The notes under the pieces are model-generated. The model worked only from the letters and a program-made list of their open reading frames with translations. It made no database searches and was not told the DNA's origin. The position numbers and the translations under genes are program-made. A DNA stretch of 55,824 bases from Escherichia virus TH28: the sequence record MT446402.1; one strand, given 5' to 3'. Below are positions 1-55,706 of the stretch, piece after piece (within the stretch, counting starts at the first letter, position 1; each line of letters starts with the position of its first letter).

Positions 1-53
1 TTCGGGGAGATTGCGATATCAACCTGAACTAAATCAGAAATTGGGATTGACAT
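1..53 (-). CDS. tail sheath protein, N-terminal fragment cut by window edge (copy A)
   Basis: Reverse translation of 1-53 gives MSIPISDLVQVDIAISP, the N-terminus of the 482-aa ORF at 50677..52125. Confidence 0.4.
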   Translation of the reverse strand, partial: MSIPISDLVQVDIAISP

Positions 54-56
54 TTA

Positions 57-575
57 TTAAACCTTTTTGGTTGTGATAAGTGTATTACCATCATAGAAGT
101 TGCCACCAACATATGCGCCAGACATGACTCCGATAGGACTCAAATCTTCACGAATAATATTGAATTGCATTCTAACCGCTTGGCGAACTTCCCAATTGGT
201 TTCCATTTGTATGGTGGCAAGATTTAAAGGTTCTTTACCAAGAGCAGCAAACTTCTCCTGCTTCAATTTGGCTTGAACATCGGGACGGTAAAACGAATTA
301 TCAAACTTGATAAATTCATCACCCTCACGAGAAAACATTATTGCAAATGTCAGAATACGAACACCACGAGTACGGAATATCTCTTCGCCATTAATGGTTA
401 CTATTCTGTTCTCGTCAAAACCTGGGTTGGTGCTTGATAAACATTTGATTGCAGCATACTCACCATGGGGTCGGGGAGCGTTAATCTGCATGTTGTATGT
501 AAATTGTGGGATGCCCACACATACATCTACAATCTCTTTCATGGATTGTAGTTCTTCAAGTCTAATATCCATCAC
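57..575 (-). CDS. head-tail joining / tail completion protein (copy A)
   Basis: 172-aa ORF between capsid genes and sheath; near-identical paralogue at 52128..52646. Confidence 0.4.
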   Translation of the reverse strand: MMDIRLEELQSMKEIVDVCVGIPQFTYNMQINAPRPHGEYAAIKCLSSTNPGFDENRIVTINGEEIFRTRGVRILTFAIMFSREGDEFIKFDNSFYRPDVQAKLKQEKFAALGKEPLNLATIQMETNWEVRQAVRMQFNIIREDLSPIGVMSGAYVGGNFYDGNTLITTKKV

Positions 576-988
576 TTCTCCAGTACACGAGCGGCAATTA
601 CAGAGAAGAATCCGGCATCTTCATAATCGTTTATTGCTATAACTTTATACTGAATGCCATAAACAGTGATGATTGATTTCATCGGCATTTCAGTACGACT
701 ATGAATCTTCATAAATGCTGGCTGACGTTCACCAACATCAGTTGCTTTAAGCTGTTGACCAGCTACACCCGAATCCCTGTCACCATATGCAATGGGAGTA
801 CAGCGGAACTTCTTCGGAGGTGCCCAAGAGTCTTCCACCCAATTATTAAGATTGTCATAATGACCTTCTATATATACTGCAAGGGTAGGACGACCAGTGG
901 TTGTGTATTTGTTGAAAGCTAAGCGTTGATTAATCAAAACTGGAACCCAGGACTTAACCTCGGCCCAGCAAATGCCATGCGCCGCCAT
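572..988 (-). CDS. head-tail connector region protein (copy A)
   Basis: 138-aa ORF in structural block; paralogue at 52643..53059 with divergent N-terminus. Confidence 0.4.
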   Translation of the reverse strand: MAAHGICWAEVKSWVPVLINQRLAFNKYTTTGRPTLAVYIEGHYDNLNNWVEDSWAPPKKFRCTPIAYGDRDSGVAGQQLKATDVGERQPAFMKIHSRTEMPMKSIITVYGIQYKVIAINDYEDAGFFSVIAARVLEK

Positions 989-1323
989 TGCAAATAACGT
1001 TGACCGTACACGGTTGACATGAAATCAGCTTCGATATATGGAATAGTCGAAATGATTCGGTCGCTGAACTCTACCTGTACATCGTCCACATCGGTACGAC
1101 TTACAGGCATAGCTGGCATTGCGGCATCACCAGGCATTATGTCGTCAATTGTTGAAGACCAATGCGCGACAAGTGATGCCATAGCTGGGTCATAAAACCC
1201 ACACCAACGCGATTCGATTGTACCCATCACAAGTTTTGCATCTTCAACTAAGATATCAAAACGACCTTGGGTCATGTCAGCCATAGCCGGATAACGTTTC
1301 ACCAAATCGGTCAGTGTAATCAT
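934..1323 (-). CDS. head-tail connector region protein (copy A)
   Basis: 129-aa ORF; paralogue at 53005..53394. Confidence 0.4.
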   Translation of the reverse strand: MITLTDLVKRYPAMADMTQGRFDILVEDAKLVMGTIESRWCGFYDPAMASLVAHWSSTIDDIMPGDAAMPAMPVSRTDVDDVQVEFSDRIISTIPYIEADFMSTVYGQRYLQWRRMAFAGPRLSPGFQF

Positions 1324-1763
1324 TATGCCAACTTATCGTAGAGAGCCAGTTTAACATCTTCCGGCATACCCTTGACGTCAACCCCATTCTTAACAAGGAT
1401 AGCATCAATATCAGGCATACCAACTTTCACGCGTTCAACAATGGAAAGAGAGCCAGCTTTGATTGCTTCTTTGACCAGGTTGACTTTACGAGTTTTACCA
1501 GTGCTGTAATACTCCTTGATGACCAGAGCTTCTTTACCAGTCTTAACAGAAGCGCCGATATTCTCGTCATCAAGCTGAACTACTTCTTCGCGCAGTTCTT
1601 CAACTTCCGTCATGGACTCCGTAAGAGACTTGTAAACTTCATCGTCGATTTCTACAGTTGCGCCACCAGGAACATGAATAAAGTCCAGCTCAGATTTGCC
1701 AGACTTCCCTTTCTTATAGAAGAAGAATTGAAGGTTGCGGGATTCGTTGTTCTTAATCTGCAT
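1323..1763 (-). CDS. head-tail connector region protein (copy A)
   Basis: 146-aa ORF; paralogue at 53395..53835 with many substitutions. Confidence 0.4.
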   Translation of the reverse strand: MQIKNNESRNLQFFFYKKGKSGKSELDFIHVPGGATVEIDDEVYKSLTESMTEVEELREEVVQLDDENIGASVKTGKEALVIKEYYSTGKTRKVNLVKEAIKAGSLSIVERVKVGMPDIDAILVKNGVDVKGMPEDVKLALYDKLA

Positions 1764-1810
1764 TACTATTTCTCTTAAGTTGTGGGCGAGAATAGTCCCG
1801 CCCTGTTTTA

Positions 1811-2818
1811 TTAGATGCCGGAGTTGATGGAGATTGCTGCCGGGTACATCGTTTGGAAGCCAGCGAAACGACCACGGCCAGGTACTTCATAAATCAGGCC
1901 ATGAAGCTGTACTGGTTGCCAGGTCAGCGGCAGAGGCTCACGCAGACGGAAAGTACGGTTGCCCATTGCGTTGCGGCAAACAACTACGAAGCAATCAGAA
2001 CCAGCATTGCCATGACCTTTGATTGCGTTCAGACCCTTGATTTTGTCGCGGGAGTTGATGAACTGGTTGTTGGCAATGAAGAACTGACCAATCGTCTTAT
2101 CAGACTGTTCAGAACGTGCGGTGTTGAAGATGTACTGCTCATGCTCAACAGGCATCCAGATTTCATCAGGGCGCATGATTTTCAGAGTAGAGGCATACAT
2201 TGCAGACACAGCAGCAGTCAGGTCGGCGATAACTTCGGTCGGAGTCTTCTCGGTCCACTTAGTAGAACCGCCAGCACCCTGAGCAACAGTTGCTTTGGTA
2301 ATGTCTGGGTTTTCGAAGAAGCCAACGAAGCCGTTAGCCTGGTCGCCGTACCATGCAGCAGAGTTTACATACTGCTCGTAACCACGAATCGCAGCATTTG
2401 CTTTACGAGTTTCCAGCGGCAGACCAGTTACAGCAGCAGATGCAACTTCGTCAATGTCGTAGTCGAATGCAGTACCAACAGACTTAACTGTTACGCTGTA
2501 TTCTTTACCAGAAATGCTAGACTTAGGCAGGTCAGTTGCACGGGCGTTAATCACCTGAGCTTTACCAACATGGTTGTAAGAACGGTAGGTCAGAGTGTTT
2601 ACGCCAGCACCGCCAGTGGTGTCCACGCCGAAAGCAGCACGCGCTTCCAGTTCAGGGTACAGGGTGTCGTAAGTTTGAGCTTCAATGAACTCAAGCTGGC
2701 GTTGAAAGAATACTGCGTCGTCATCGTTCAGGACAACAGTGCCAGAATCCTGGATACGAGTGATGGCGTCGTTCAGTTCAAATTCAGAACCGTCAGCCAG
2801 TTTAATCATCTTAGGCAT
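1811..2818 (-). CDS. major capsid protein (copy A)
   Basis: 335-aa ORF downstream of portal, protease/scaffold and decoration genes; size fits an HK97-fold capsid protein; paralogue at 53879..54886. Confidence 0.55.
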   Translation of the reverse strand: MPKMIKLADGSEFELNDAITRIQDSGTVVLNDDDAVFFQRQLEFIEAQTYDTLYPELEARAAFGVDTTGGAGVNTLTYRSYNHVGKAQVINARATDLPKSSISGKEYSVTVKSVGTAFDYDIDEVASAAVTGLPLETRKANAAIRGYEQYVNSAAWYGDQANGFVGFFENPDITKATVAQGAGGSTKWTEKTPTEVIADLTAAVSAMYASTLKIMRPDEIWMPVEHEQYIFNTARSEQSDKTIGQFFIANNQFINSRDKIKGLNAIKGHGNAGSDCFVVVCRNAMGNRTFRLREPLPLTWQPVQLHGLIYEVPGRGRFAGFQTMYPAAISINSGI

Positions 2819-2858
2819 TGTGATGTAATTCCATTATGTTGGCATATTGCCATTAAAT

Positions 2859-3203
2859 TTATGCTGTCCACACTTTAGACAGAGATGTACCTGCAACAGA
2901 CGTCCCGTAGGAGTCCTCAATTGTGCAGTTTACAGAGAAAGTTTTGCCAACCTGGTCGGCTGGAGTGGTTCCAGTAATGTGGGCGCGATTTACCGCGTCA
3001 TTTACCAGAGATAACCCACCAGCCCCTTCGGTTTCCATAGCAAACTTATAAATATAACTTCCATCATCTGCTTCTACCACTGCGGCAGGGTCAGTACGGA
3101 TGTAAAAGTCTACAGCTTCACCAGCAGTCAGTACAGCACCGATAGTGTTGCTCCACCCGCTTGTACCATTTGCAGAGTATTGCGTCTGACCGACGGAAGT
3201 CAA
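2859..3203 (-). CDS. Ig-like (Big_2-type) domain protein, probable capsid decoration (copy A)
   Basis: 114-aa Thr/Val/Ala/Gly-rich beta-type sequence between decoration and capsid genes; counterpart 54931..55182 has a different sequence. Confidence 0.4.
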   Translation of the reverse strand: MTSVGQTQYSANGTSGWSNTIGAVLTAGEAVDFYIRTDPAAVVEADDGSYIYKFAMETEGAGGLSLVNDAVNRAHITGTTPADQVGKTFSVNCTIEDSYGTSVAGTSLSKVWTA

Positions 3204-3220
3204 TTTAGCCTTCGGTGTGG

Positions 3221-3691
3221 TTACGCCTTTGGGAGTACGTTAATCATTACTGGAACAACATCACCAGCAGCCGCCGGATAGCGAAGTGCAGTCAGGTTTG
3301 TAGCAGCAGTGTAGGTGCCATCAACGCCACCAAATTGACCAGTGGCAGATACGCCAATGTTCTTGTCAGTGATTGCAGTAACCAGTTTAACCATGATTGG
3401 GCCAGACAGCATACGCCCAGAGGCCAGCCAGCTTTGATTGCAACAGTGCCGTCACCAGGACGGTTGCGATTCGATGTTAATCTGGCGCATAGTAATGCCC
3501 AGAACAGTGCCGTCGGCTTCAATACCAGGCTTAACCTGATTAGAAGCAGTACCCTGAACAACAGCTAAACCAAAGTTAGCCATTTCAGCTTCAGCATTGA
3601 AAGTCAGGCGCTGAGAGTTAGTGGTAGCCAGGCCATATTGCTCACCCGCATATGCTGCACCAGTATTAATAGACCAATCTTGCTTTGGCAT
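3221..3691 (-). pseudogene. head decoration-like protein, disrupted copy (copy A)
   Basis: Intact 157-aa homologue at 55224..55697; here a 2-nt and a 1-nt deletion relative to copy B create an out-of-frame stretch with an in-frame TGA at 3452-3454. Confidence 0.5.
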
Positions 3692-3700
3692 TGTCTTACC

Positions 3701-4942
3701 TTATAAAGAGTTGAAGCGTTCTAAACGACGTTTGTTAGCTTCTTCGGAAATAGAAACTTTAGGCTTACGAGCTTCTGAATCTTTCTTAGCAGAGAATTGC
3801 ATAGATTGGTTCAGTGCATCGCCCAAAGTAATGGAATCACAATCTTCAAGTGCTGCATCGAAACGAGCAGAGATATAATCTTCACTCTTATCGCTGAAAT
3901 CCTTGTCATGCAATTTATTAACTACAGCCAACTTAACTTCTGAATCGGACTTGCCGGAGAAATCAAGACTGGAGAATTCGTCGCCAAGACGGGCCACATC
4001 AATGAGAAGTGCTGTACGAGCAACAACACGTTTGTCTACCTCAGCCTGAATGGCTTCATCGGATAGTCGTGCAGTTTCTGCATCAGCAAGTTTCTGCTCA
4101 AGGGTGCTAATCTTGTCAAGCGCCGCATCACGCTCTGCTTCAACAACATCAAAGGTTGCCTTATCGACAATGGAAATCTCTTCACCAGAGTCACCAATGC
4201 GAGTAGTCTGAGCACGACCACGAACAACAATTGCAGCATGGTTAGGGATAATACGAACTTTGTCGAAGTCTGCATCGGCATCTTCTGCAACAGCCAGTTC
4301 TGCATTATGCCCCAGGGAGATTTGGTCAACGCCAGAATCAACTAATCGAATGGCTTGCTCGTCATTCAAAACGATTGATGCAGCCAAGAAAGAACCGTCT
4401 GCAATTGGACGACCTTCGATGAACCCTTTCTGGAGTTCTTTGTTGTTCTTGATATTGACGTCATCTTTTGGATGGCCGATAGTAACCGGAATTGAGCGAC
4501 AACCTTCGATGGTTGCTTCATCAAATAATACTTCCGGTTTGGTGCGAACACGGCAAACAGATTCTGGGTCTAGATGTTTTGCAATCTCACCAAGTTCTTT
4601 CGCTTTGTACAGCATAATGCCAGTACGAGCAATGGTGCATTCTGCAATCATTTCGCCAGAGTCGCGTAAACGACGGGTCGTCAGAGTAGCCTTGTCGGTT
4701 AACAAAACTACTTCATTCACAGTATCTTCGTCGTTAAGCTGGACCAGGTTTTGGCTTTGCTTCACTTGCGTTACCCTTTTGGATGTTAGGAGGTTTAGGA
4801 TTTGGCTTACCAAGGTCACAAGTTCCGAACACGCCCGAATGGAACATGACTTCATTTGCAACTTGCGTAGTAATGGTGCCGTTGTTAACCAGTAGGTCAA
4901 CAGCAAATGCCAAATCTTTAGCTCGCTTCGCTTTCTCAACAT
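3701..4942 (-). CDS. prohead protease / scaffold-like protein (true start probably near 4740)
   Basis: Acidic, helix-rich 413-aa ORF directly after portal; position typical of protease-scaffold fusions; overlaps portal ORF so an internal start is likely. Confidence 0.45.
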   Translation of the reverse strand: MLRKRSELKIWHLLLTYWLTTAPLLRKLQMKSCSIRACSELVTLVSQILNLLTSKRVTQVKQSQNLVQLNDEDTVNEVVLLTDKATLTTRRLRDSGEMIAECTIARTGIMLYKAKELGEIAKHLDPESVCRVRTKPEVLFDEATIEGCRSIPVTIGHPKDDVNIKNNKELQKGFIEGRPIADGSFLAASIVLNDEQAIRLVDSGVDQISLGHNAELAVAEDADADFDKVRIIPNHAAIVVRGRAQTTRIGDSGEEISIVDKATFDVVEAERDAALDKISTLEQKLADAETARLSDEAIQAEVDKRVVARTALLIDVARLGDEFSSLDFSGKSDSEVKLAVVNKLHDKDFSDKSEDYISARFDAALEDCDSITLGDALNQSMQFSAKKDSEARKPKVSISEEANKRRLERFNSL

Positions 4943-8900: not shown

Positions 8901-9352
8901 CTAAACTCGTCCAGTTGAACCAAACCCACCTTCACCACGAACAGTGGAATTTAAGTGGTCAACTTCAACGAAATGGTGTTGAGTAGCTTTACTAACTTGC
9001 ACTTGACAAACACGTTCGCCTGGTTGAATAACAAAGGCTGTGTCCGAGTCGTTGTGCAGCTTAACCATAAGATTACCGCGATAGTCGGAATCCAGAATGC
9101 CTGTGCAGTTTGCAAGGCGAATACCAGACTTAAAGCCGTGCCAGAACGGCTATGCACTTTGAGTTCGTATCCAATTGGTACTTCGAACTGGAGGCCAGTA
9201 TCGACAACAACAGAAGAGCCGGGATTGATAACAACAGTGGTATCGGATACAGTACAAACATCAGCAGCAGCAGCGCCAGCTGTAGCATACACAGGTAATT
9301 TCGCATTAGGGTGTACTCGTTTAACTGCAACAACTTGGGTCATACAAGACAT
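8901..9352 (-). pseudogene. dut: dUTPase, reading frame broken near 9141-9152
   Basis: N-terminal part (YATAGAAAADV, HSRSG) is in the frame of ORF 8951..9352; C-terminal motifs (GIRLANCTGILDSDYRGN, QPGERVCQ, RGEGGFGSTG) are in another frame ending at stop 8901-8903. Confidence 0.65.
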
Positions 9353-9354
9353 GG

Positions 9355-10083
9355 TTATTTCTCTACTTGATAAGTTATGCGTTCAATCCAATTGAACACT
9401 TTGAATACGGAATCGTCCACCTTACCATCAATTAGATGTTCATCCACTGTTACGCGGGTAGGTGTATTTGGGAGGTTGATGTATCTGCGAGAATCGCCCG
9501 TGAAATCAAAACCATCACGATGCAAACGCACAATGATGACGAAATCATAAGCAGACTCAACGGCAACGACTTCATCACCAAAACCGCCATCGGGATAAAT
9601 GACATTAATAACGCCACCCATACGCCCCGTGAGTTCTTCAACACGAGCAGCTTCAACCTTACCGAAGTAGTCTTGTCCGTAGCGAGGTTTATAGATGTCT
9701 TCACTAGCGTGAATAAGAGCTTGACGAGGTGTTCTGCCACCAAGACCTGCAAGGGAGATAGAGTCTTTGAGGTCACGGTCCGAAGCATAGTGGATAAACT
9801 TGTCCACATCGACTTGAAAGTGTTTGGCAGTATGCTCATACAGTGCATCCTTAAACTGGTGTTTAGTGAATCGGCGCTTACCGAGAAAGTATGATTCCTC
9901 GGCAGCAACTATCTTGTTGGCAATTGTGTCTTTACCACAGCCAGGTGGGCCATTAAGAATGACAGCTAAACGCTTAATCAAAACTTTCCTCGCTCTTGTC
10001 TGTGCGAAGGCGAACCAAAGAAGGGAAGCGGAATTTACCAGCTTCTGTCTTCTCACGATATCGAACTTGCATAATCGAACCAA
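9355..10083 (-). CDS. deoxynucleoside monophosphate kinase (T4 gp1-like P-loop kinase); start probably internal
   Basis: P-loop GPPGCGKDT; overall resemblance to T4 dNMP kinase by recollection; 5' end overlaps ligase ORF. Confidence 0.55.
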   Translation of the reverse strand: MVRLCKFDIVRRQKLVNSASLLWFAFAQTRARKVLIKRLAVILNGPPGCGKDTIANKIVAAEESYFLGKRRFTKHQFKDALYEHTAKHFQVDVDKFIHYASDRDLKDSISLAGLGGRTPRQALIHASEDIYKPRYGQDYFGKVEAARVEELTGRMGGVINVIYPDGGFGDEVVAVESAYDFVIIVRLHRDGFDFTGDSRRYINLPNTPTRVTVDEHLIDGKVDDSVFKVFNWIERITYQVEK

Positions 10084-12322: not shown

Positions 12323-13222
12323 TCAGAACGGCATACCATTGCCGCCAGCAGCACCACCTTCCGCTTCACGCTGTGCTTTTGCAGCAGCTTGAGCTTCCAG
12401 TTCGGCTTTCATTGCTGCATCAACTTCTTCATCAGAAGCCTGATTCGGAACAGAATCATCAGCAGGTTTACCGCCCAGCAGAGCAGACAGTTTGGTTTTG
12501 TAGAAGTCAACACCAGCAGTGATGCGGTTCTTGATTGCGTAAGGAGAATCACCACCAGGCAGCTTGTTGAACACTTCTAAGTCTGGCTCAGACATGTCGA
12601 AGAATACAGTCGGGTTAACCAGAGCTTTGGCTTCTTTCTTCTCTTTGGACTTCATTGGGGAGAAGGTAGCAACCTTGTTCGCGACCTGACCAGCGTTCTT
12701 GCCAGACTGTTTGGTGTATTGAACAATGCCAACAACCAGAGGTTCGCCCAGCCAATCTGGCAGGTTCTTAGCAGGGTGGCCCTGAATACTTTGTTCCAGA
12801 TTCTGTTTAACTTCCAGAGCATCAATCGCTTTAGCGAATTTGTAGATGTGGGAGTTGTCACCCATGAAGCCATCAGCGTTGTAGGTAAACTCAAAGTCAA
12901 ACCAACGCGGCTTGTCTTCAAGATTCTTCGCCATCATTACGCCGTCATCTTCGTCCGGGTCTTGGACCATGACCATAGCACCATTGCCATCAACTTCTTT
13001 CATGTACTCGTCGAGTAGTTCGAAAGTAACCAGAAGTTTCAGGGATGGGTTTGGATATTTAGCAGAGCCTGGCTGTAAGCCCAGGTCGATAATACGGCAG
13101 ACACGAGCAGGATAACCACCCGCTTCCAGTAATGGTGCAGCAGAAGGAGTCTTGTTCGAGGCCAGGGTAGGAGCAGCAAATGCCATTTTGAGTACCTTAA
13201 ATTTCAATAATGTGAGAGTCAA
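12323..13222 (-). CDS. hypothetical protein, possible ssDNA-binding protein
   Basis: 299 aa with acidic C-terminal region ending in Phe (GMPF), as in T7 gp2.5-type SSBs; position in replication block. Confidence 0.3.
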   Translation of the reverse strand: MTLTLLKFKVLKMAFAAPTLASNKTPSAAPLLEAGGYPARVCRIIDLGLQPGSAKYPNPSLKLLVTFELLDEYMKEVDGNGAMVMVQDPDEDDGVMMAKNLEDKPRWFDFEFTYNADGFMGDNSHIYKFAKAIDALEVKQNLEQSIQGHPAKNLPDWLGEPLVVGIVQYTKQSGKNAGQVANKVATFSPMKSKEKKEAKALVNPTVFFDMSEPDLEVFNKLPGGDSPYAIKNRITAGVDFYKTKLSALLGGKPADDSVPNQASDEEVDAAMKAELEAQAAAKAQREAEGGAAGGNGMPF

Positions 13223-15442: not shown

Positions 15443-17206
15443 TTATTGATGTGGACCGTTCTTCTTAGTAAGTTGAACAATCTCTTTGGTTTCGAACAAG
15501 GAGTCGTCCCAAGAACGTTGAATGATTCGACCAGAGTCTGAGTCATAGTACGTCTTGAAGCCTTCTGTCTTACCACTCTTACGAGCTTTGATAGAACGAA
15601 TGATTGAGCAGTTCGGGTCTACTGCCTGGCTATTACGCTCAAAGCCAAACATGCCATGAGAATATTTAGCAGCAGCACGAGAGCCAGTAAAGTCTGACTT
15701 CTTGATTCGTCCACCATCTTCATGAGGTCGTTGACCTTTTGCCACAGGGTTAAGGTGCGACAAGATATTGACGTGGAACTGGTATTGGTCTGCCAGCTTA
15801 GTAATGTCTGCATACAGCTTGCCTAAGAAGTCGTTCTTCTCTGAGGCAGAAATCCCTTCCGATAAGTAGGTTAAGTTATCAAGAACAAACATATCAATGT
15901 CTGGACCAATCTGACGAAGAATCGTCTTTAACCCATCCCAAGTTTCATAAGGGTCTTCTCCAGCTTGCTTGCGGTCCCAAATCTCCATGTTACGAAGCAT
16001 CTTCGCAGCAGTTTGACGGAACTTCGCTTCATCGTATCGAGGGTCTTCACGAGTAAACGCAGGTTCCCAATACGGCAAGTTGTCATTGAGGCCAGCCATA
16101 CGGCGTAATGTTTCCGCAGGAGTTTCCTCCATGTATGCAGTAAACACTCCCCAATCATGCTGAATAATGTTGTGATGCACAATCTGTCGAGATAGTGTAG
16201 TTTTACCACCACCTTCCGCACCACCGATTGAGATAACTTCGGCACGACGTTGACCAAACATTAAGTCAGTCAGCTTAGGCCAAGGATAGTCCACACCCTG
16301 TTCAACTTCGTCATCAAGTTCTTCCATAAGAAGTTCTTTATTGACAAGAGCTGTAGGCAGAGGACGAGCAGCACGGAATACAACAGCAGATTGAGTAGCT
16401 TTCAATAAGCCACGTTTCAAACAGTCGTTGGCATCATTGGCAGGAAGTGTGGCAATCATTGCACCAGGCAACAAACGACATGCTTCCTTTGCAGCTTTAC
16501 GCCCAGGTTCATCATCATCAAATACGATAACAACCTGTTCCCAACGTTGCTTGATTTCTTCTGCAACTGGTGACAAACATTTGTGTACGGAATCGCTTCC
16601 ATCACTCAAACTAATTACAGCAAAATCCAAATCTTCATATGCACCACCACGGTTCATAGTTTTGAGGATTTGACGCAATGCGATACAGTCTTCTTCACCT
16701 TCTGTGATGAACAGTGTCTTACCGCCAATAGCTTTTGCAGCCATCCAGTTGTATGGGTCGTTGCCTTGAGTATCGCCAACAGACCACATAACTTTCTTGT
16801 TCAGAAGTTTAATCTTCCAGCGAACAAGTTTGCCATTCTTGGTATATCCATGCGCCAAAGCATTTGGAGTCTTACCATCAAACTCTGAATAGAGTAGGCG
16901 AACACCAGCAGCTTTCCAGAACTCCGGTTCAATACTGCGATGGTCTAAATCAAATGGAGGGCACGAGGTTACTTCGTCAATTTCTTCCTGAATTTCTTCT
17001 GGAGTCTTGACTTTAATTTCCGGAATATTCTCCGGATTATTGCCATACGGATTCGGAACAAGAACGCCACATGCAAAGCAGTAACCAGAGAAGTTCTTAT
17101 TACCAGCTTCATCGACATTCAACCAAACCTGTAAAGACTTGCCAGATGTGGATTTACAGTCTGGTACATCGTGCTTAATCTTGGCAACACATTGCTTGAC
17201 GTTCAT
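15443..17206 (-). CDS. primase-helicase (T7 gp4-like)
   Basis: N-terminal Cys zinc-finger region, central TOPRIM-like region, Walker A GGAEGGGKTT. Confidence 0.85.
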   Translation of the reverse strand: MNVKQCVAKIKHDVPDCKSTSGKSLQVWLNVDEAGNKNFSGYCFACGVLVPNPYGNNPENIPEIKVKTPEEIQEEIDEVTSCPPFDLDHRSIEPEFWKAAGVRLLYSEFDGKTPNALAHGYTKNGKLVRWKIKLLNKKVMWSVGDTQGNDPYNWMAAKAIGGKTLFITEGEEDCIALRQILKTMNRGGAYEDLDFAVISLSDGSDSVHKCLSPVAEEIKQRWEQVVIVFDDDEPGRKAAKEACRLLPGAMIATLPANDANDCLKRGLLKATQSAVVFRAARPLPTALVNKELLMEELDDEVEQGVDYPWPKLTDLMFGQRRAEVISIGGAEGGGKTTLSRQIVHHNIIQHDWGVFTAYMEETPAETLRRMAGLNDNLPYWEPAFTREDPRYDEAKFRQTAAKMLRNMEIWDRKQAGEDPYETWDGLKTILRQIGPDIDMFVLDNLTYLSEGISASEKNDFLGKLYADITKLADQYQFHVNILSHLNPVAKGQRPHEDGGRIKKSDFTGSRAAAKYSHGMFGFERNSQAVDPNCSIIRSIKARKSGKTEGFKTYYDSDSGRIIQRSWDDSLFETKEIVQLTKKNGPHQ

Positions 17207-17211
17207 TTATA

Positions 17212-17862
17212 TTATTCCTGATTGGTCAAAGCCTTCCAGCAAACCGGAAATAGTTCTGACATAATTTTATTCACTTCTTCCGCAAACAAGCGAACTTCAT
17301 ATTGCGCATGTTCGGAGGAACGCTGATTGTACATGGATGCCCAGCCATAAAGAGAGCCAGTCCAAACCCATTCAGTCATCATGGATTGCGGCAACACCAT
17401 GCGAGCTTGCTCTGGAGCAATCCCCAAACCAATTAACATTTCATATTCTACGATGCAAGCCATGTTATGGCTTTCCATACGATATTTAATGTCATCAGCA
17501 AAATCTTGTGGCAATGGTTGTGCAGATTGAGTCATCAACTTTTCAGGACGACCAAACACAGTATCTGGAATGAAGAATTCGATTTCGATTGCTTCACCAT
17601 CTTTGTAGCGACGGCTTACTTCATTCCAACTAAAGCCAGTTTGGTGTTTGCCAAGCTGACGTGCAATGAAGATTGGAGCTTTGCAACGAAGAGTTACCTG
17701 TGCATGACGGAACGGCGTAATGTGTTTATGCTTTGCAAGAAACTCAATCAGCTTCTCGTCACGTAAAGATATTTCATGCGACTCTGCACCATAAGAAACT
17801 CGTGCAGCATTAACAGTTGTAAGGTCGCTGCCCATGTGGTCAACGAGTGTTGCAGTAATCAT
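17212..17862 (-). CDS. thyX: ThyX-like flavin-dependent thymidylate synthase homologue with atypical motif
   Basis: Overall resemblance to ThyX as I recall it (VNAARVSYG, KAPIFIARQ, SEHAQYE) but KHQ where the RHR signature is expected. Confidence 0.7.
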   Translation of the reverse strand: MITATLVDHMGSDLTTVNAARVSYGAESHEISLRDEKLIEFLAKHKHITPFRHAQVTLRCKAPIFIARQLGKHQTGFSWNEVSRRYKDGEAIEIEFFIPDTVFGRPEKLMTQSAQPLPQDFADDIKYRMESHNMACIVEYEMLIGLGIAPEQARMVLPQSMMTEWVWTGSLYGWASMYNQRSSEHAQYEVRLFAEEVNKIMSELFPVCWKALTNQE

Positions 17863-17918
17863 TTGCTCTCCGGTTCATATGGTGGGAGATTAATTAGCTC
17901 CGCACCATGATAATGGTA

Positions 17919-21054: not shown

Positions 21055-21729
21055 TCAATACATATTGAATCGTTCGATTGTTTTGATTACCAAATCCTTT
21101 GTCTCAGCGACAGTGAGTTCAGTGATGATTGATTCGTCATAACCCTCAATCTGGATTGCTACAAAACGCCCAACACCTGTTACGGTAAGTCGGTTAGTTC
21201 TGTCACGAACAACTACACCAGCTTCTTGCGCGACTGCTCGCAACAATTTCCAGCGTAAAGTTCGGTTTGGTACAGCAAAGCCCTTTGTCAAGAACAACTC
21301 TTTCATGAGTTCCCCAAGGCAAACAGCTTCAATGTTTTTTCCTCTTCCAACTAATTCTTGCAACAGGCACAGCGTCAACATTTCTAAATTGTTGAAGTGA
21401 CCAGCGCGCTCCAAATTAAAGAACTCTGGAGGAACAGTTGAACGAGATTTAACAGCTTGCTTGTATGCACGTTCTTCTTCCTGTGCAGCAAGCATCAGCA
21501 TCTCTGGCTTAATATATTTCATAGCAGAGAAGCCAGCGCGTGTGGCTTTAATTATGCGACAAGCCTCTTTCATCTTGTAGCGTTGCCACTCACCGCGCTT
21601 CGATTCTGGATTAAAATGGACCCACATAATGATAACATCTTCCTTGGCAAGATAGACGGCATCATTATCATTGAGCCATTGCTTGCACGTCGATAGTGCA
21701 ATCTCTTTGTCATCATCATGATAAGACAT
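21055..21729 (-). CDS. hypothetical protein (internal start of ORF 21055..21786)
   Basis: 243-aa ORF overlaps upstream gene; Met at 21729 removes overlap. Confidence 0.45.
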   Translation of the reverse strand: MSYHDDDKEIALSTCKQWLNDNDAVYLAKEDVIIMWVHFNPESKRGEWQRYKMKEACRIIKATRAGFSAMKYIKPEMLMLAAQEEERAYKQAVKSRSTVPPEFFNLERAGHFNNLEMLTLCLLQELVGRGKNIEAVCLGELMKELFLTKGFAVPNRTLRWKLLRAVAQEAGVVVRDRTNRLTVTGVGRFVAIQIEGYDESIITELTVAETKDLVIKTIERFNMY

Positions 21730-21730
21730 T

Positions 21731-22057
21731 TTAGTGGCCTTGTAGGATACGTTTGTTCGCAGTTTCTGCGTCGATTCCCAAATCAACTAATGTAACCAAG
21801 CACTGCGAAATCCGCTCTTGCGCAGCTTTCTCCAGAATTTGGTATTTTTCGTCGTTAACGCCTAACACATTCTTGGCATGAATGAGTGTAGCCATTAGGC
21901 CATGGCCCAAAGCAACAGCTTGCATTGCCTGGAGTTCAAAGTTGATTGTGATGCCAGCGAGTTCATGCTCTTTCTGGATAATCTCAATCAACTCCTCTTT
22001 CGATTTGTCTTGTAAGTTCAAAATGGAACTCCGTAAGTTGGTTGGTTTGTTGTCCAT
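21731..22057 (-). CDS. hypothetical protein
   Basis: 108-aa ORF. Confidence 0.45.
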   Translation of the reverse strand: MDNKPTNLRSSILNLQDKSKEELIEIIQKEHELAGITINFELQAMQAVALGHGLMATLIHAKNVLGVNDEKYQILEKAAQERISQCLVTLVDLGIDAETANKRILQGH

Positions 22058-34043: not shown

Positions 34044-35162
34044 TCATAATTCAAATCCACCTAGAGCATCAGTATCAACTTCGGAGTCAATTTGCCCGAC
34101 CAGATAGGAACTAATCTCCGTTTCCTGTGGAGCAACCTGTACAGCATCCGAATTCAACCATGCGTTAATCCACGGAATCGGGTTAGTTGCACCTTTGAAT
34201 GGAGCATCTAATCCAACTGCTTGCATACGAATATTCGTGATATATTCCACATACCCGCACAGAATTTGCTTGTTTAAGCCAATCATGGAGCCATCTTTGA
34301 ACAGATAATCGGCCCAATCTTTCTCTTGTTGAGCAGCATCTTCGAACAATTTCTGGCACTCTTCACGGCATTCTTGGGCAATTTCACCCATTTCTGGGTC
34401 ATCTTTACCACTCGCAAGAATATTCAACATGTGCTGAGTTCCGGTCAAATGGAGTGCTTCATCTCGTGCAATCAGTCGAATAATCTTGGCATTTCCTTCC
34501 ATTAACTTGCGTTCAGCGAAGGCAAATGAGCAAGCAAAACTAACATAGAAGCGAATTGCTTCAAGTGCGTTGATAGACATGAGGCATAAATAGAGCTTCC
34601 TCTTCAACTCACGAAGACTAATTTCATGACCAGCATGGTTCCCTTCTCCGAACAATTGCCATAATGCAGTGAGTTGTTGAAGCTCGTCATAATATTGGGA
34701 GATGCCAATTGCTCGTGCTTTGATATGCTCGTTAGTTACAATTTCATCAAAGATAATGCTTGGGTCTGTAACGATGTTTCGAATAATGTGGGTGTAAGAA
34801 CGTGAATGGATAGTCTCGGAGAAAGACCAAGTTTCAATCCAAGTTTCAAGCTCAGGAATGCTCACGATTGGGAGCAAAACTGTGTTAGGTCCACGTCCCT
34901 GAATGGAGTCCAGAAGGATTTGATAGCGCAAATTACTGGTGAAAATGTGCTGTTCGTTTGGTGGAAGCTTCTGGTAATCAATGCGGTCTTGTGAAACATC
35001 TACCTCTTCCGGTCTCCAGAAGAATGACAATTGTTTCTCAATCAACTTCTCGAATATGCCATACTTCTGTTGGTCATAGCGAGCAACGTTGACGTTCTGA
35101 CCAAAGAACATTGGTTCTAATAGTTGGTTATTCTTGGTTTGTGAAAAGGTAGTGTAAGACAT
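34044..35162 (-). CDS. nrdB: ribonucleotide reductase class Ia small subunit
   Basis: Long blocks matching enterobacterial NrdB as I recall it ([52 protein letters not shown]). Confidence 0.9.
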
Positions 35163-50676: not shown

Positions 50677-52125
50677 TTACTGAATGAAGTTGCCAGAGAT
50701 TACAGCACCCTGGATTGCACCGGAACCGATAGCAATAAAGGAAGTACCTTCCCAAATACGTTCACCCTTCTGCGACTGCAAGAGTTCTAACGGAGTAGAA
50801 ATAACTTTGTAGCCTTCTGGATAGAAGACGCCTTCGTTATCATAGCCAGGGGCAATGAGGCCGTTAGTCTTAGCGAGTTCGAGCGCCAGGGTTACTTGCT
50901 GGTTAACCATTGCTACACCAGTGTCCGTCCAAGGAATCTTGGTAGTGGAGGTGTAGAACAAGTTGAACACGTTCAGTCGAACTTTCTGAGTCAGCCATTC
51001 AACACCTTGTACGGAGTCGAACCATGTGCCGTCAGCCATACGACCGTTGTAGAACATTACGTTGCCAGCAACAGAAATGAATGCGTTACCACCACAAGAA
51101 AGCAGCGCACTTACCTGCCCAGAAGACAGGTCAGCAGTGGCGATACCTGGACCTTTCTTGTATGCCAGAATAAGAACAGAGTTTGCAACGTTAAAGTTAA
51201 CAGTTGATGCACGACCCAGGATAGAAATTTCCGGATATTCATCACCATTCGCAGAAGCATCGTAAACACACAGAGTGTTACGCAGGTTCTGGTTCTTAGC
51301 ACGACGGAAGCTGTTATCAGTGCCGTTGATAAGAATGTTCTTGTCGTTATCACCCCAGCCAAATACTTTGCTGGATGCTTCACACCACTTCGCCACAGAC
51401 ATTTGGTTGTCTACTGGAGAGGTTTTGCCACGATACTGGCGGTCAAGGCCCACATAGAAGAAGTTGAATGGAGCATCTGCAATATTAGACAAGTCGGAAG
51501 AAATGGATAGCTCGTTCTTACCAGCAACAATAACTGCGCTGTCAGAAGATTGCAGTTTCAGTACTTCACCAACTTTACCACCAACGTTGCTGATAGTTGC
51601 GTTGATGCCAGTTGCAGAAGTGGTCAGCTTGAACTTGCCAGCTTCCTGAGTAACAGTTACGCCAGCACCAACAGAAGATAGTGCAGTAGTTACTAGAGTT
51701 GCAACTTCTTCGAAGTCAGCAGCAGCAGAGAAATCAATCGGGTCAGTAACATACTGAACACCGCTAACACTTAACTGCATGGTTGCAGCAGTTTCCAGCT
51801 TAATGGTTGCCAATACAGCAGCAGTTGCAGCAGTAACAGTGGCAGGAGTTGCTGGAGTCAAAGTATCGTACTTGATAGCACCAACCAGGAAAGTCTTCGG
51901 AGTTGGCTTCTGCGAGTACCAAGAGGTAGCAGCTTTAGCAATCTCACCACCAGGGAAGTCTGCGAGAACTTCTTTCAAACTGGTATAGGAACGAACCGGA
52001 TATACATCAACGGTCGGTACAAACTCTTTGCTCATAAAGAGCAATGGCCCAAAACCATCGGTCGCAATGGCGTTCGGGGAGATTGCGATATCAACCTGAA
52101 CTAAATCAGAAATTGGGATTGACAT
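50677..52125 (-). CDS. tail sheath protein
   Basis: 482 aa immediately upstream of tube gene; size and position fit Mu/P2-type sheath. Confidence 0.5.
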   Translation of the reverse strand: MSIPISDLVQVDIAISPNAIATDGFGPLLFMSKEFVPTVDVYPVRSYTSLKEVLADFPGGEIAKAATSWYSQKPTPKTFLVGAIKYDTLTPATPATVTAATAAVLATIKLETAATMQLSVSGVQYVTDPIDFSAAADFEEVATLVTTALSSVGAGVTVTQEAGKFKLTTSATGINATISNVGGKVGEVLKLQSSDSAVIVAGKNELSISSDLSNIADAPFNFFYVGLDRQYRGKTSPVDNQMSVAKWCEASSKVFGWGDNDKNILINGTDNSFRRAKNQNLRNTLCVYDASANGDEYPEISILGRASTVNFNVANSVLILAYKKGPGIATADLSSGQVSALLSCGGNAFISVAGNVMFYNGRMADGTWFDSVQGVEWLTQKVRLNVFNLFYTSTTKIPWTDTGVAMVNQQVTLALELAKTNGLIAPGYDNEGVFYPEGYKVISTPLELLQSQKGERIWEGTSFIAIGSGAIQGAVISGNFIQ

Positions 52126-52127
52126 TA

Positions 52128-52646
52128 TTAAACCTTTTTGGTTGTGATAAGTGTATTACCATCATAGAAGTTGCCACCAACATATGCGCCAGACATGACT
52201 CCGATAGGACTCAAATCTTCACGAATAACATTGAATTGCATTTTAACCGCTTGGCGAACTTCCCAATTGGTTTCCATTTGTATGGTGGCAAGATTTAAAG
52301 GTTCTTTACCAAGAGCAGCAAACTTCTCCTGCTTCAATTTGGCTTGAACATCGGGACGGTAAAACGAATTATCAAACTTGATAAATTCATCACCCTCACG
52401 AGAAAACATTATTGCAAATGTCAGAATACGAACACCACGAGTACGGAATATCTCTTCGCCATTAATGGTTACTATTCTGTTCTCGTCAAAACCTGGGTTG
52501 GTGCTTGATAAACATTTGATTGCAGCATACTCACCATGGGGTCGGGGAGCGTTAATCTGCATGTTGTATGTAAATTGTGGGATGCCCACACATACATCTA
52601 CAATCTCTTTCATGGATTGTAGTTCTTCAAGTCTAATATCCATCAC
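52128..52646 (-). CDS. head-tail joining / tail completion protein (copy B)
   Basis: 172 aa; 2 substitutions relative to 57..575. Confidence 0.45.
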   Translation of the reverse strand: MMDIRLEELQSMKEIVDVCVGIPQFTYNMQINAPRPHGEYAAIKCLSSTNPGFDENRIVTINGEEIFRTRGVRILTFAIMFSREGDEFIKFDNSFYRPDVQAKLKQEKFAALGKEPLNLATIQMETNWEVRQAVKMQFNVIREDLSPIGVMSGAYVGGNFYDGNTLITTKKV

Positions 52647-53059
52647 TTCTCCAGTACGCGAGCGGCAATCACGGAGAAGAACCCAGCATCTTCATAATCG
52701 TTTATTGCTATAACTTTATACTGAATGCCGTAAACAGTGATAATGGATTTCATAGGCATCTTAGTACGACTATGAATCTTCATGAATGCTGGCTGACGTT
52801 CGCCAACATCAGTCGCTTTAAGCTGTTGACCAGCTACACCTGAATCCCTGTCTCCATATGCAATGGGAGTACAGCGGAACTTCTTCGGAGGTGCCCAGGA
52901 ATCTTCCACCCAGTTATTAAGATTGTCGTAATAACCTTCTATATAAACTGCAATGGTGGGTCGGTTTGTGGTTGTGTATCTGTTAAATGCTCGACGTTGA
53001 TTTATCACATCTGCCACCCTGGAGAAATTCGAGGGCCAGCAAAAGCCATACGTCGCCAT
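52643..53059 (-). CDS. head-tail connector region protein (copy B)
   Basis: 138 aa; paralogue of 572..988. Confidence 0.4.
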   Translation of the reverse strand: MATYGFCWPSNFSRVADVINQRRAFNRYTTTNRPTIAVYIEGYYDNLNNWVEDSWAPPKKFRCTPIAYGDRDSGVAGQQLKATDVGERQPAFMKIHSRTKMPMKSIITVYGIQYKVIAINDYEDAGFFSVIAARVLEK

Positions 53060-53394
53060 TGCAAATAACGTTGCCCATAAACGGTAGACATGAGGTCAGC
53101 TTCAACATAGGGAATTGTTGAAATGATTCGGTCGCTAAACTCTACCTGCACATCGTCAACATCTGTACGACTTACAGGTATAGATGGCATAGCAGCATCC
53201 CCAGGCAGTAGGTCGTCAATTGTTGAAGACCAATGCGCAATAAGGGATGCCATTGCTGGGTCATAAAACCCACACCAACGCGATTCGATTGTTCCCATCA
53301 TCAGTTTTGCATCTTCAACTAAGATTTCAAAACGGTCTTGGGTCATGTCAGCCATTGCAGGATAACGTTTAACCAAATCGGTTAGTGTTATCAT
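53005..53394 (-). CDS. head-tail connector region protein (copy B)
   Basis: 129 aa; paralogue of 934..1323. Confidence 0.4.
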   Translation of the reverse strand: MITLTDLVKRYPAMADMTQDRFEILVEDAKLMMGTIESRWCGFYDPAMASLIAHWSSTIDDLLPGDAAMPSIPVSRTDVDDVQVEFSDRIISTIPYVEADLMSTVYGQRYLQWRRMAFAGPRISPGWQM

Positions 53395-53835
53395 TTACGC
53401 CAACTTATCGTAGAGGGCCAGTTTAGCTTCTTCCGGCATATCTTTGATGTTCACGCCGTTAGCAACCAACACTTTATCAATGTCAGGCATACCAACTTTC
53501 ACGCGTTCAACAATAGACAGACTGCCAGCTTTGATAGCTTCTTTGACCAGGTTTACTTTACGAGTTTTACCCGTGGTGTAATATTCCTTAATCACGAGTG
53601 CTTCTTTGCCAGACTTAACGTCAGCACCAATGTTGGAGTCGTCCAGCTTAACTTCTTCTTCACGCATCACTTCAACTTCAGTGACAGAAGAGGTAATTGC
53701 TTTATACACTTCATCATCAATTTCAACAGTTGCACCGCCAGGAATGTGTACAAAATCCAGTACAGGTTTGCCAGATTTATCCTTCTTATAGAAGAAGAAT
53801 TGGAGGTTGCGAGTTTCGTTGTTCTTAAGCTGCAT
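53395..53835 (-). CDS. head-tail connector region protein (copy B)
   Basis: 146 aa; paralogue of 1323..1763. Confidence 0.4.
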   Translation of the reverse strand: MQLKNNETRNLQFFFYKKDKSGKPVLDFVHIPGGATVEIDDEVYKAITSSVTEVEVMREEEVKLDDSNIGADVKSGKEALVIKEYYTTGKTRKVNLVKEAIKAGSLSIVERVKVGMPDIDKVLVANGVNIKDMPEEAKLALYDKLA

Positions 53836-53878
53836 TACATTTCTCTTAAATTAGGCGAGATTTCTCCCGCCATCTGGG

Positions 53879-54886
53879 TTAAATACCGGAGTTGATGGAG
53901 ATTGCTGCCGGGTACATTGCCTGGAAGCCAGCGAAACGGCCACGACCAGGTACTTCATAAACCAGACCATGCAGCTGAACTGGTTGCCAAGTTAACGGCA
54001 GCGGTTCACGCAGACGGAAGGTGCGGTTGCCCATAGCTTCACGGCACACAACTACGAAGCAATCTGCGCCAGAAGCACCGTGACCTTTGATTGCATTAAG
54101 GCCCTTGATTTTGTCACGGGAATTAATGAACTGGTTGTTGTCAATGAAGAACTGACCGATAGTCTTATCAGACTGCTCAGAACGTGCGGTGTTGAAGATG
54201 TACTGCTCATGCTCAACAGGCATCCAGATTTCAGAAGGACGCATGATTTTCAGAGTAGATGCGTACATTGCAGACACAGCAGTGGTCAGGTCAGCAATAA
54301 CTTCGGTCGGAGTCTTCTCGTTCCACTTGGTAGAACTGCCAGCGCCCTGAGCAACAGTTGCTTTGGTAACGTCTGGGTTTTCGAAGAAGCCAACAAAGCC
54401 GTTAGCCTGGTCGCCGTACCATGCAGCGGAGTTTACATACTGCTCGTAACCACGAATCGCAGCATTTGCTTTACGAGTTTCCAGCGGCAGACCAGTTACA
54501 GCAGCAGATGCAACTTCGTCAATGTCATAGTCGAATGCAGTACCAACAGACTTAACTGTTACGCTGTATTCTTTACCAGAAATGCTGGACTTCGGCAGGT
54601 CGGTTGCACGGGCGTTGATTACCTGAGCTTTACCAACATGGTTGTATGAACGGTAGGTCAGCGTGTTAACACCAGCGCCGCCAGTAGTATCAACACCGAA
54701 AGCAGCACGAGCTTCCAGTTCAGGATACAGGGTGTCGTAAGTTTGAGCTTCAATGAACTCAAGCTGACGTTGAAAGAACACTGCGTCGTCGTCATTCAAA
54801 ACAACGGTGCCAGAGTCCTGGATACGGGTGATGGCATCATTCAGTTCAAATTCAGAACCGTCGGCCAGTTTAATCATCTTTGGCAT
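53879..54886 (-). CDS. major capsid protein (copy B)
   Basis: 335 aa; paralogue of 1811..2818 with few substitutions. Confidence 0.55.
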   Translation of the reverse strand: MPKMIKLADGSEFELNDAITRIQDSGTVVLNDDDAVFFQRQLEFIEAQTYDTLYPELEARAAFGVDTTGGAGVNTLTYRSYNHVGKAQVINARATDLPKSSISGKEYSVTVKSVGTAFDYDIDEVASAAVTGLPLETRKANAAIRGYEQYVNSAAWYGDQANGFVGFFENPDVTKATVAQGAGSSTKWNEKTPTEVIADLTTAVSAMYASTLKIMRPSEIWMPVEHEQYIFNTARSEQSDKTIGQFFIDNNQFINSRDKIKGLNAIKGHGASGADCFVVVCREAMGNRTFRLREPLPLTWQPVQLHGLVYEVPGRGRFAGFQAMYPAAISINSGI

Positions 54887-54930
54887 TAAATTTATTCCAT
54901 TAGGCGCAGATTATTCTACGCCAATTAAAC

Positions 54931-55182
54931 TTAAGGATGCGTAATGGTGATTGCTTTAGTAGCAGTTACACCAGGAGCAGTCTTATGAGTTGCTTTGATT
55001 GTTGCAGAAGTCGCAGTACCAATCGTCGCAGTTGCAACAGTTACAGTACCATTGGCCGCCACAGTTACTCCAGTGACCGCTGGGTCAACAGTGAAGTTGT
55101 AGTCACTTGCAACAGAGTTTGCAAACGTAAACAGTTTATCAACAGTTACGGTAGCATTTACAGTTGAAGCATCAGCAGTCAC
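54931..55182 (-). CDS. Ig-like (Big_2-type) domain protein (copy B, different sequence from copy A)
   Basis: 83 aa, Thr/Val/Ala-rich beta-strand repeats (VTVAANGTVTVATATIGTAT). Confidence 0.4.
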   Translation of the reverse strand: MTADASTVNATVTVDKLFTFANSVASDYNFTVDPAVTGVTVAANGTVTVATATIGTATSATIKATHKTAPGVTATKAITITHP

Positions 55183-55223
55183 AGCCGCCGCTACCGCAGT
55201 AACGGTCGGTGCTGGAGGTGGCG

Positions 55224-55697
55224 TTACGACTTTGGGACTACGTTAATCATGACCGGAACAACATCACCAGCAGCAGCCGGATAGCGAAGTGCAGTCAGGT
55301 TGGTTGCCTTAGTATAGCCAGCGCCAACACCACCAAATTGACCAGTGGCAGACACGCCAATGTTCTTGTCAGTGATTGCAGTAACCAGTTTAACCATGAT
55401 TGGGCCAGACAGCATAACGCCCAGAGGCCAGCCAGCTTTGATTGCAACAGTGCCGTCACCAGGACGAGTTGCGGATTCGATGTTAATCTGGCGCATAGTA
55501 ATGCCCAGAACAGTGCCGTCGGCTTCAATACCAGGCTTAACCTGATTAGAAGCAGTACCCTGAACAACAGCTAAACCAAAGTTAGCCATTTCAGCTTCAG
55601 CATTGAAAGTCAGGCGCTGAGAGTTAGTGGTAGCCAGGCCATATTGCTCACCCGCATATGCTGCACCAGTATTAATAGACCAATCTTGCTTTGGCAT
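55224..55697 (-). CDS. head decoration-like protein (copy B, intact)
   Basis: 157-aa ORF; intact version of the split gene at 3221..3691. Confidence 0.45.
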   Translation of the reverse strand: MPKQDWSINTGAAYAGEQYGLATTNSQRLTFNAEAEMANFGLAVVQGTASNQVKPGIEADGTVLGITMRQINIESATRPGDGTVAIKAGWPLGVMLSGPIMVKLVTAITDKNIGVSATGQFGGVGAGYTKATNLTALRYPAAAGDVVPVMINVVPKS

Positions 55698-55706
55698 TGT
55701 CTTACC

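Follow-up and report, generated by a model that had tools for sequence, protein, structure and literature searches.

The window considered here, a stretch of 55,824 nucleotides from Escherichia virus TH28 (MT446402.1), carries on its minus strand an intact open reading frame, thyX (17212..17862), that opens with ATG, closes with TAA and specifies 216 amino acids plus the stop. A GGAG ribosome-binding site (17868..17871, minus strand), read directly from the sequence (...aaccGGAGagcaaATG), sits 5 nt upstream of the start codon. The initial annotation had taken the product for a homologue of the flavin-dependent thymidylate synthase ThyX on the strength of short sequence blocks. All four are indeed present, VNAARVSYG at residues 17-25, KAPIFIARQ at 61-69, KHQTGFSWNEVSRR at 72-85 and SEHAQYE at 183-189, and the profile and fold comparisons agree with the assignment. 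The Pfam profile PF02511 is matched from end to end (positions 1-191 of 191) at E=4.7e-43 and 147.6 bits, against a threshold of 24.8; ThyX is the sole family retrieved for this protein in the Pfam profile search, which returned no ThyA-family match. The protein scores 131.2 bits with the NCBIfam thyX equivalog model TIGR02170, whose cut-off is 87.9, PHROG 85 ('thymidylate synthase') matches at 8.7e-73, and the Thermotoga maritima (Tm) ThyX in the PDB matches at 1.2e-28. An AF2 monomer model built from 52 homologues has a mean pLDDT of 93.3. When this model is compared with the PDB by Foldseek, the best 50 matches are all T. maritima ThyX (TM 0.78-0.84, probability 1.00), with a TM of ~0.83 to the best structures among them, 8reo and 1o27. 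With the canonical enzymes of T. maritima (TM0449) and Thermus thermophilus (6J61) the protein thus shares, besides the fold, 34-35% sequence identity and the same length and domain layout.

Between positions 15000 and 19000, the window shares 100% identity with Escherichia viruses TH23 and TH33, and 88-96% with phiEcoM-GJ1, MLP1, Mangalitsa, flopper and the PYps phages (Carltongylesvirus, Chaseviridae). It belongs to a phiEcoM-GJ1-like coliphage of Carltongylesvirus, Chaseviridae. In the records of related phages the gene is annotated as thymidylate synthase and occupies the same place, flanked by a small hypothetical gene on one side and by the T7-like primase/helicase and the DNA polymerase on the other. 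The T7 gp4-like primase/helicase of TH28 (15443..17206, minus strand), recognised as an open reading frame and from the annotation of the syntenic Mangalitsa gp42, begins 5 nt past the thyX stop codon, which sets thyX within the replication gene block. The broad identity of the gene is already known, in that the TH28 sequence is public, its relatives are annotated as thymidylate synthase, and a curated equivalog model is passed.

Three other nucleotide-supply genes, a T4-type dNMP kinase, a dUTPase and nrdB, had been listed as neighbours of thyX in the initial annotation, and each stands only in part. The first, given as 9355-10083, is retained as a putative dNMP kinase (9355..9981, minus strand) by its match to PHROG 139 at 6.9e-39, but its T4-type character finds no support: for 9355-10083, a phmmer search of the PDB for T4 Dnk returned only P-loop noise, and Pfam DNMK gave no match. 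The longer reading arises because the open reading frame extends mechanically to a TTG at 10083; the 208-amino-acid form agrees with Mangalitsa gp50. The dUTPase gene (8901..9352, minus strand) is present but is split, in the TH28 sequence, by a 1-nt deletion near 9138. A tblastn comparison with the Mangalitsa dUTPase finds it in two frames and the DNA alignment supports the deletion; the mechanical reading frame 8951-9352 consists of 71 in-frame dUTPase residues followed by an out-of-frame tail, and the dUTPase profile matches are partial and sub-threshold. The third gene encodes NrdB, the beta subunit of a class Ia ribonucleotide reductase (34044..35162, minus strand; PHROG 86 at 9.2e-155, NF006576 at 717.7 bits). 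It exists and is conserved in Carltongylesvirus, but it lies 17 kb from thyX, and the genome holds no nrdA partner for it.

The chief peculiarity of the TH28 protein resides in its signature motif. Three alignment procedures, HMMER against the T. maritima and T. thermophilus enzymes, MAFFT over 98 sequences and hmmalign over 337 sequences, concur in placing K72, H73 and Q74 (codons aaa cac caa; 17641..17649, minus strand) on R78, H79 and R80 of T. maritima ThyX. The by-eye reading of KHQ where RHR is expected is therefore upheld, and the accompanying worry that it might be offset by a few residues falls away, since the three methods agree. A search of all 216 residues for an RHR string found none, so that a canonical triad elsewhere in the protein, which had been named as grounds for abandoning the reading, does not exist. 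A sequencing error at this point is ruled out as well: of the 120 nearest homologues (66-95% identity) drawn from 5.8 billion proteins, 119 read KHQ and the remaining one KHS.

The whole variant signature, from K72 to Y86 (KHQTGFSWNEVSRRY; 17605..17649, minus strand), takes in the catalytic-loop residues S83, R85 and Y86, equivalent to Tm S88, R90 and Y91, together with the subfamily-specific G76 and R84. An additional residue, F77, precedes the S78-W79-N80-E81 segment (S-x-N-E in the canonical enzymes) and sets the spacing at KHQ-X8-S. Against the textbook signature RHR-X7-8-S, TH28 ThyX thus reads K72-H73-Q74-X8-S83, in which the His and the Ser are kept, the first Arg is replaced by Lys and the third by Gln. 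Further departures from canonical ThyX are an SRRY in place of SGRY, a Leu in place of the Trp after ARQ, and a Tyr at the position of Tm R165.

Twelve functional residues are kept in TH28 ThyX, here given as Tm with the TH28 equivalent in brackets: H53 (H47), H59 (H53), R74 (R68), Q75 (Q69), N85 (N80), E86 (E81), S88 (S83), R90 (R85), Y91 (Y86), R147 (R154), R174 (R181) and H178 (H185). All 12 are invariant in the 120 close homologues. Eight of these, Q69, E81, S83, R85, Y86, R154, R181 and the folate-stacking H47, which serve dUMP binding, catalysis or folate stacking, are nearly invariant even in 150 distant representatives. The isoalloxazine-contacting residues that were examined are all kept in TH28 ThyX. 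Positions that address the adenosine part of the cofactor (Tm N163, R165, N169 and H178) differ or vary in the subfamily, although the stretch around Tm 163-169 is aligned with less confidence than the motif is. One of them, Tm R165 (R190 in Mycobacterium tuberculosis ThyX), is another FAD-phosphate contact; it is a Tyr in TH28 and variable in the subfamily, in this same less secure stretch of the alignment. Flavin binding may really differ at this point.

What the triad does in canonical ThyX is known from structures. According to a review of FDTS structures, hydrogen bonds run from the RHR residues to the AMP and FMN phosphates of FAD and to its ribityl chain, with a further one from the first Arg to the isoalloxazine ring (PMC6514825). 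The guanidinium of R78 aims at N1 and C2=O in the reduced T. maritima enzyme and stabilises the anionic FADH-, an N1-facing role that in flavoproteins usually falls to "a basic residue" (PMC11940539). A Lys at the R78 position is accordingly a conservative change, because the basic group that faces N1/C2=O is kept. Nor is the triad purely a cofactor clamp, as Tm Arg78 and Arg80 are also listed among the residues that hydrogen-bond dUMP (PMC3498832). The KHQ triad is a conserved mark of its subfamily, and its effect would fall on the clamp that holds the flavin, not on recognition of the substrate. In the mutagenesis of M. tuberculosis ThyX by Ulmer and coworkers in 2008, the RHR residues reportedly formed part of an essential extended motif; if they are essential there, the same changes in a canonical background would probably not be neutral.

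The substitutions seen in TH28 are far from private to this phage. The 98-sequence MAFFT alignment, which sets TH28 ThyX and the Tm reference beside the 96 nearest normal-length representatives of 50%-identity clusters from a 1.84-billion-protein library, shows K at the first triad position in 87 of the 98 sequences, and at the third position Q (51), K (15), T (8), V (7) or, in just six, R. The position of Tm G89 is an Arg in 89 of the 98, which turns SGRY into SRRY. The resulting subfamily signature is ARQL-x-K-H-[Q/K/T/V]-x-G-x-x-W-N-E-x-S-R-R-Y, of which G76, S83, R84, R85 and Y86 (TH28 numbering) are invariant or nearly so across the subfamily. Of the 150 nearest 50%-identity clusters, the majority consist of KHx...SRRY proteins, mainly from metagenomes; KHQ...SRRY, constant in 119 of the 120 close homologues, dominates the representatives of these clusters. 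Median identity to the query declines from 45% for KHx/SRRY to 39% for KHR/SGRY and 33% for RHR/S[GA]RY. The two variable arginines are almost mutually exclusive: in the hmmalign alignment of 215 non-close sequences, which are not phylogenetically independent, six have both R80 and R89, 32 have R80 only, 162 have R89 only and 15 have neither (Tm numbering). Such a pattern would fit an arginine that has been relocated within the active-site loops. Conservation of this kind marks the KHQ signature as evidently under purifying selection, as well as widespread, and the triad is part of a coordinated subfamily signature, not a lesion. Since the KHQ deviation is common to a whole subfamily, it is the textbook ThyX motif that is too narrow, rather than the TH28 protein that is an outlier.

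Cultured phages of diverse affiliation bear this signature. KHQ...SRRY occurs in the ThyX of Kuravirus MN03, Pseudomonas phage O4 (Zobellviridae) and Alteromonas phage H4/4 (Autographiviridae), with KHQ...SMRY in Aeromonas phage 4_4572 and KHK in Rheinheimera phage Barba5A, and in these phages thyX often adjoins genes for ribonucleotide reductase, glutaredoxin/thioredoxin, MazG or a nucleotide kinase. RHR is kept in the ThyX of PaMx25, S-ESS1, Phabba and ACG-2014b; a Streptomyces phage ThyX reads KYA with an insertion, followed by SRRY. A survey of one genome per bacterial species extends the distribution to cells. Three Nitrospinaceae MAGs encode a KHQ...SRRY ThyX at the same locus, between an AcrB-family pump gene (acrB) and ispH/mlaA, and two syntenic genomes, one labelled Dependentiae and the other only "uncultured Pseudomonadota", encode a KS[S/T]...SRRY ThyX whose gene is flanked by recD2 and an MscS channel gene and has smpB close by. 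These Nitrospinaceae and Dependentiae-type loci lie on chromosomes and are of a housekeeping kind; a literature search for the thyX or thyA content of Nitrospina or Dependentiae genomes turned up no statement on it. Some sixteen genomes of Holophagaceae and Geothrix carry KHR...SGRY, from which it follows that the R78K change on its own is also found in cellular ThyX. The enzymes of MN03, O4, H4/4, 4_4572 and Nitrospinaceae share with TH28 the ARQLxKHQxGxxWNExSRRY architecture at 43-56% identity, and in the phages also the placement of thyX among replication and dNTP-supply genes. They differ from TH28 in that they belong to other virus families and hosts, that the Nitrospinaceae gene lies on a chromosome, and that several adjoin complete ribonucleotide reductase operons, whereas TH28 has only its distant, lone nrdB. 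A search of the PDB for a solved KHx-SRRY member returned RHR-type relatives exclusively, and a literature search for biochemical or complementation data on KHx-type ThyX found none.

Taken together, the sequence comparisons indicate that the TH28 gene very probably specifies an active ThyX of the ordinary kind, which converts dUMP to dTMP for phage replication. By homology, the protein would assemble as a homotetramer, with active sites built from three subunits, and its bound flavin, which we infer to be FAD, would be reduced with NAD(P)H. The methylene group of CH2-H4folate would then be passed to flavin N5 and on to C5 of dUMP, and subsequent reduction would yield dTMP. Conversion of dTMP to dTTP could be accomplished by the phage dNMP kinase together with host kinases, for use by the phage DNA polymerase encoded in the same gene block. 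Within the variant motif, it would be K72, in place of Arg78, that presents a basic group to flavin N1/C2=O; the His (H73) is unchanged, and the third arginine would be dispensable in the subfamily. The guanidinium thereby lost close to the phosphate-binding loop is probably made up for by R84, a new and nearly invariant arginine where Tm has G89.

The alternative that survives best leaves the product unchanged. KHx-SRRY enzymes might still make dTMP and handle the cofactor otherwise, with FAD bound more weakly or exchangeably, FMN in place of FAD, or a different reductant preference, as a consequence of replacement or relocation of the FAD-phosphate-clamping Tm R78, R80 and R165. We consider this doubtful, albeit more plausible than any change of product. 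It would account for the K, Q and Y found in place of these three residues and for the new Arg at Tm 89, for the variation at adenosine-part positions alongside conserved isoalloxazine and dUMP contacts, and it concerns a subfamily without a solved structure. However, the argument is pure sequence inference, it leans in part on the less certain alignment of Tm 163-169, and H73 is retained; the Lys, together with an Arg that has moved, may do no more than re-establish the FAD contacts of the canonical enzyme.

A more radical proposal, advanced in the initial annotation, is that loss of the two signature arginines may have altered the substrate or the product and that the gene could serve a base-modification pathway. 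A neofunctionalised ThyX of this sort would stop at, or divert, the exocyclic-methylene intermediate and release another 5-substituted nucleotide (e.g., 5-hydroxymethyl-dUMP), or it would act on another pyrimidine, and its product would feed DNA modification. Some points can be cited for it. The triad does differ from canonical RHR, and replacement of the first Arg, which is directed at flavin N1/C2=O, could in principle alter the redox chemistry of the flavin; the block also holds a gene for a dNMP kinase; and the fold is known to be capable of a change in nucleotide specificity, as exemplified by the ThyX-fold paralogue PolB, the UMP/dUMP C5-methylase of Streptomyces polyoxin biosynthesis (PDB 4P5A). 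PolB nevertheless matches TH28 ThyX less closely (4.7e-20) than housekeeping ThyX does (1e-29 to 1e-28), and the TH28 gene is embedded in a phage replication block, not in an antibiotic gene cluster. The R-to-K change preserves the basic group, the residues that contact the uracil, the ribose and the phosphate of dUMP are all kept, as are those for folate, and the protein passes the thyX equivalog model. KHx/SRRY is moreover the norm in a large subfamily, and the same signature is borne by ThyX encoded on Nitrospinaceae and Dependentiae chromosomes and, within plain dNTP-synthesis modules, by that of many unrelated phages. The modified-pyrimidine reading thus finds no positive support and has several lines of evidence against it, and we regard it as highly improbable.

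The genetic context points in the same direction. Phages do recruit thymidylate synthase homologues for modified pyrimidines, as the proposal had noted, but the known phage pyrimidine hydroxymethylases are of the ThyA family, not ThyX, and thymidine hypermodification in phages begins with a ThyA-family dUMP hydroxymethyltransferase (PMC8989533). The ThyA-family hydroxymethylases of SPO1, T4, M6 and ViI, which act on dUMP or dCMP, do resemble ThyX in placing a one-carbon unit from CH2-H4folate onto pyrimidine C5 before replication; their fold and mechanism are unrelated and involve no flavin, and the TH28 window is without the downstream hypermodification genes. A search of all open reading frames of at least 140 amino acids for a ThyA-type hydroxymethylase, a 5-hmdU kinase, an aGPT-Pplase or a glycosyltransferase found none, and no ThyA-like gene turned up in the scanned window reading frames or in the 39 kb examined of an annotated relative. 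Reading frames of this size are structural, replication, lysis or nucleotide-supply genes, with two exceptions of unknown function, 12323-13186 and 21055-21786, neither of which has a Pfam match. The former encodes a 287-amino-acid protein next to the DNA polymerase, which was modelled as a possible modification enzyme; its model (pLDDT 85.6) has no significant fold match, only weak SSB/OB-like ones (E at least 0.05).

Evidence from related phages is likewise against a modified genome. The ICTV profile mentions no modified bases for Chaseviridae (PMC12842549), an absence of reports that is not a measurement. The DNA of PYps23T, whose ThyX is 85% identical to that of TH28 and also KHQ, gives NdeI and MbiI patterns that, the terminal repeat aside, agree with those predicted in silico (PMC8762354), although a small 5-hmdU-like modification might still permit cutting, and the sequence of phage flopper came from a standard Nextera library. 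The literature searched yielded no modification pathway built on ThyX. A subfamily-wide version of the proposal would hold that KHx...SRRY enzymes are not functionally equivalent to canonical ThyX at all, their clamp being re-wired (Arg78 to Lys, Arg80 and Arg165 lost, a new Arg89), and that some members release another C5 product such as 5-hydroxymethyl-dUMP or, more mildly, employ a different or exchangeable flavin. If true, the stronger version would mean that TH28 makes modified thymidine by way of ThyX, a route that has gone unrecognised, but we deem it very unlikely.

That thyX is a degenerate, catalytically dead relic, as might be imagined from the deviation of two of its three signature residues and from the frameshift in the neighbouring dUTPase gene of the TH28 sequence, can be dismissed almost outright, because the reading frame is intact with a good ribosome-binding site, the model is of high confidence, the catalytic residues are invariant in 120 homologues down to 66% identity and persist in far more distant relatives, and the variant positions are themselves conserved, unlike those of a decaying gene.

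As an ordinary dTMP-making enzyme, the TH28 protein would represent a routine auxiliary dTMP-supply gene and matter little for the phage itself. The signature has wider consequences for how ThyX is recognised. Filters that demand RHR-X7-S would discard a large, mainly phage-borne K-H-x...S-R-R-Y subfamily, and one published phylogeny dropped sequences with more than two residues dissimilar to the motif (PMC2826268). ThyX is also studied as an antibacterial target, and a structure or kinetics of a KHx enzyme would show how far the flavin-phosphate clamp varies.

The characterised viral ThyX, that of PBCV-1 (A674R; PDB 2CFA and 4FZB), belongs to the same family and likewise represents a virus-encoded supply of dTMP. 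Its numbering coincides with that of T. maritima around S88-Q89-R90 (PMC3498832). In sequence, it is much more distant from TH28 ThyX than the bacterial ThyX structures are, at E=2.9e-09 with the single sequence and 5.9e-33 with the subfamily profile.

The K-H-Q signature of the phage ThyX (the 216-aa protein at window positions 17212-17862, minus strand) is not the furthest departure from the textbook R-H-R motif. A further variant carries K-Y-[V/I/A] at the RHR positions, followed by an insertion of 5-11 residues (e.g., GSAHYEGTGDSLDAW) ahead of N-E-x-S-R-R-Y. Because His79, the middle residue of RHR in Thermotoga maritima numbering, is missing here too, this variant lies farther from the textbook motif than the phage protein does. 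Its ThyX loci are L015, L025, L027-L039, and L056, in Paenibacillus and Bacillota genomes, and L072, in Streptomyces phage LukeCage; the variant is kept in many Paenibacillus species and Streptomyces phages.

Many 50%-identity cluster representatives of the KHx-type subfamily, in which K-H-x replaces RHR, are unusually long. These proteins, among them P0123, P0127, P0142, P0152, P0166, P0193, P0196, P0235, and P0270, span 300-600 aa, and the phage ThyX matches them in two or three separate stretches, with breaks around its residues 30-37 and 92-115. This pattern suggests that conserved portions of the enzyme have been interrupted by inteins or insertions of another kind. One bacterial locus, L003 on a 560-kb contig of Novosphingobium sp. 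NPDC080210, encodes a KHQ-type ThyX, after which come a dNMP-kinase-like gene, which matches Pfam DNMK weakly, and a ribonucleotide reductase. Surrounded by short ORFs, this phage-like dNTP module within the chromosome is probably a prophage.

Elsewhere in the phage genome, the dUTPase gene (window 8901-9352, minus strand) is split over two frames by a 1-base deletion near 9138, where the window reads TCTGG-CACGG and phage Mangalitsa, its annotated syntenic relative, reads TCTGGTCACGG. The mechanically called ORF at 8951-9352 holds 71 genuine dUTPase residues and then an out-of-frame tail. The frameshifted gene may be a real pseudogene or may reflect a sequencing or assembly error. Adjoining the endolysin and tail-fibre genes is nrdB (34044-35162, minus strand), which encodes the beta subunit of a class Ia ribonucleotide reductase (NF006576 at 717 bits). 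No alpha subunit partner is encoded in the 52-kb genome, and nrdB is kept in other Carltongylesvirus genomes; the phage NrdB therefore presumably pairs with host NrdA.

Between the DNA polymerase and 5′-3′ exonuclease genes lies the gene for a Chaseviridae-specific 287-aa protein of PHROG 862, a family of unknown function (12323-13186, minus strand). Its structure, predicted with confidence (pLDDT 85.6), is rich in beta strands; the C-terminal tail is disordered and, in the family consensus, finishes with PF. Its fold matches are weak SSB/OB-fold hits only (E ≥ 0.05). The protein may bind single-stranded DNA in the manner of gp2.5.

The window ends, 1-3818 and 52073-55824, are near-duplicate but non-identical: a 2.8-kb stretch aligns at 89.9% identity and a 0.6-kb stretch at 96%. 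The related phage TH23 matches the 3′ copy at 100% identity, while the best record match of the 5′ copy reaches about 96% (PYps23T, MLP1). Rather than carrying a true terminal repeat, the window appears to be a contig that wraps around or is a chimera, joining two related phage variants. Among the nucleotide matches, PP952070.1 (H6), a genome 93.5% identical to this coliphage region, was deposited as "Staphylococcus phage Pel53" with Staphylococcus hyicus as host. Such a host is implausible for a Carltongylesvirus, so it was probably mis-assigned or the isolate contaminated.
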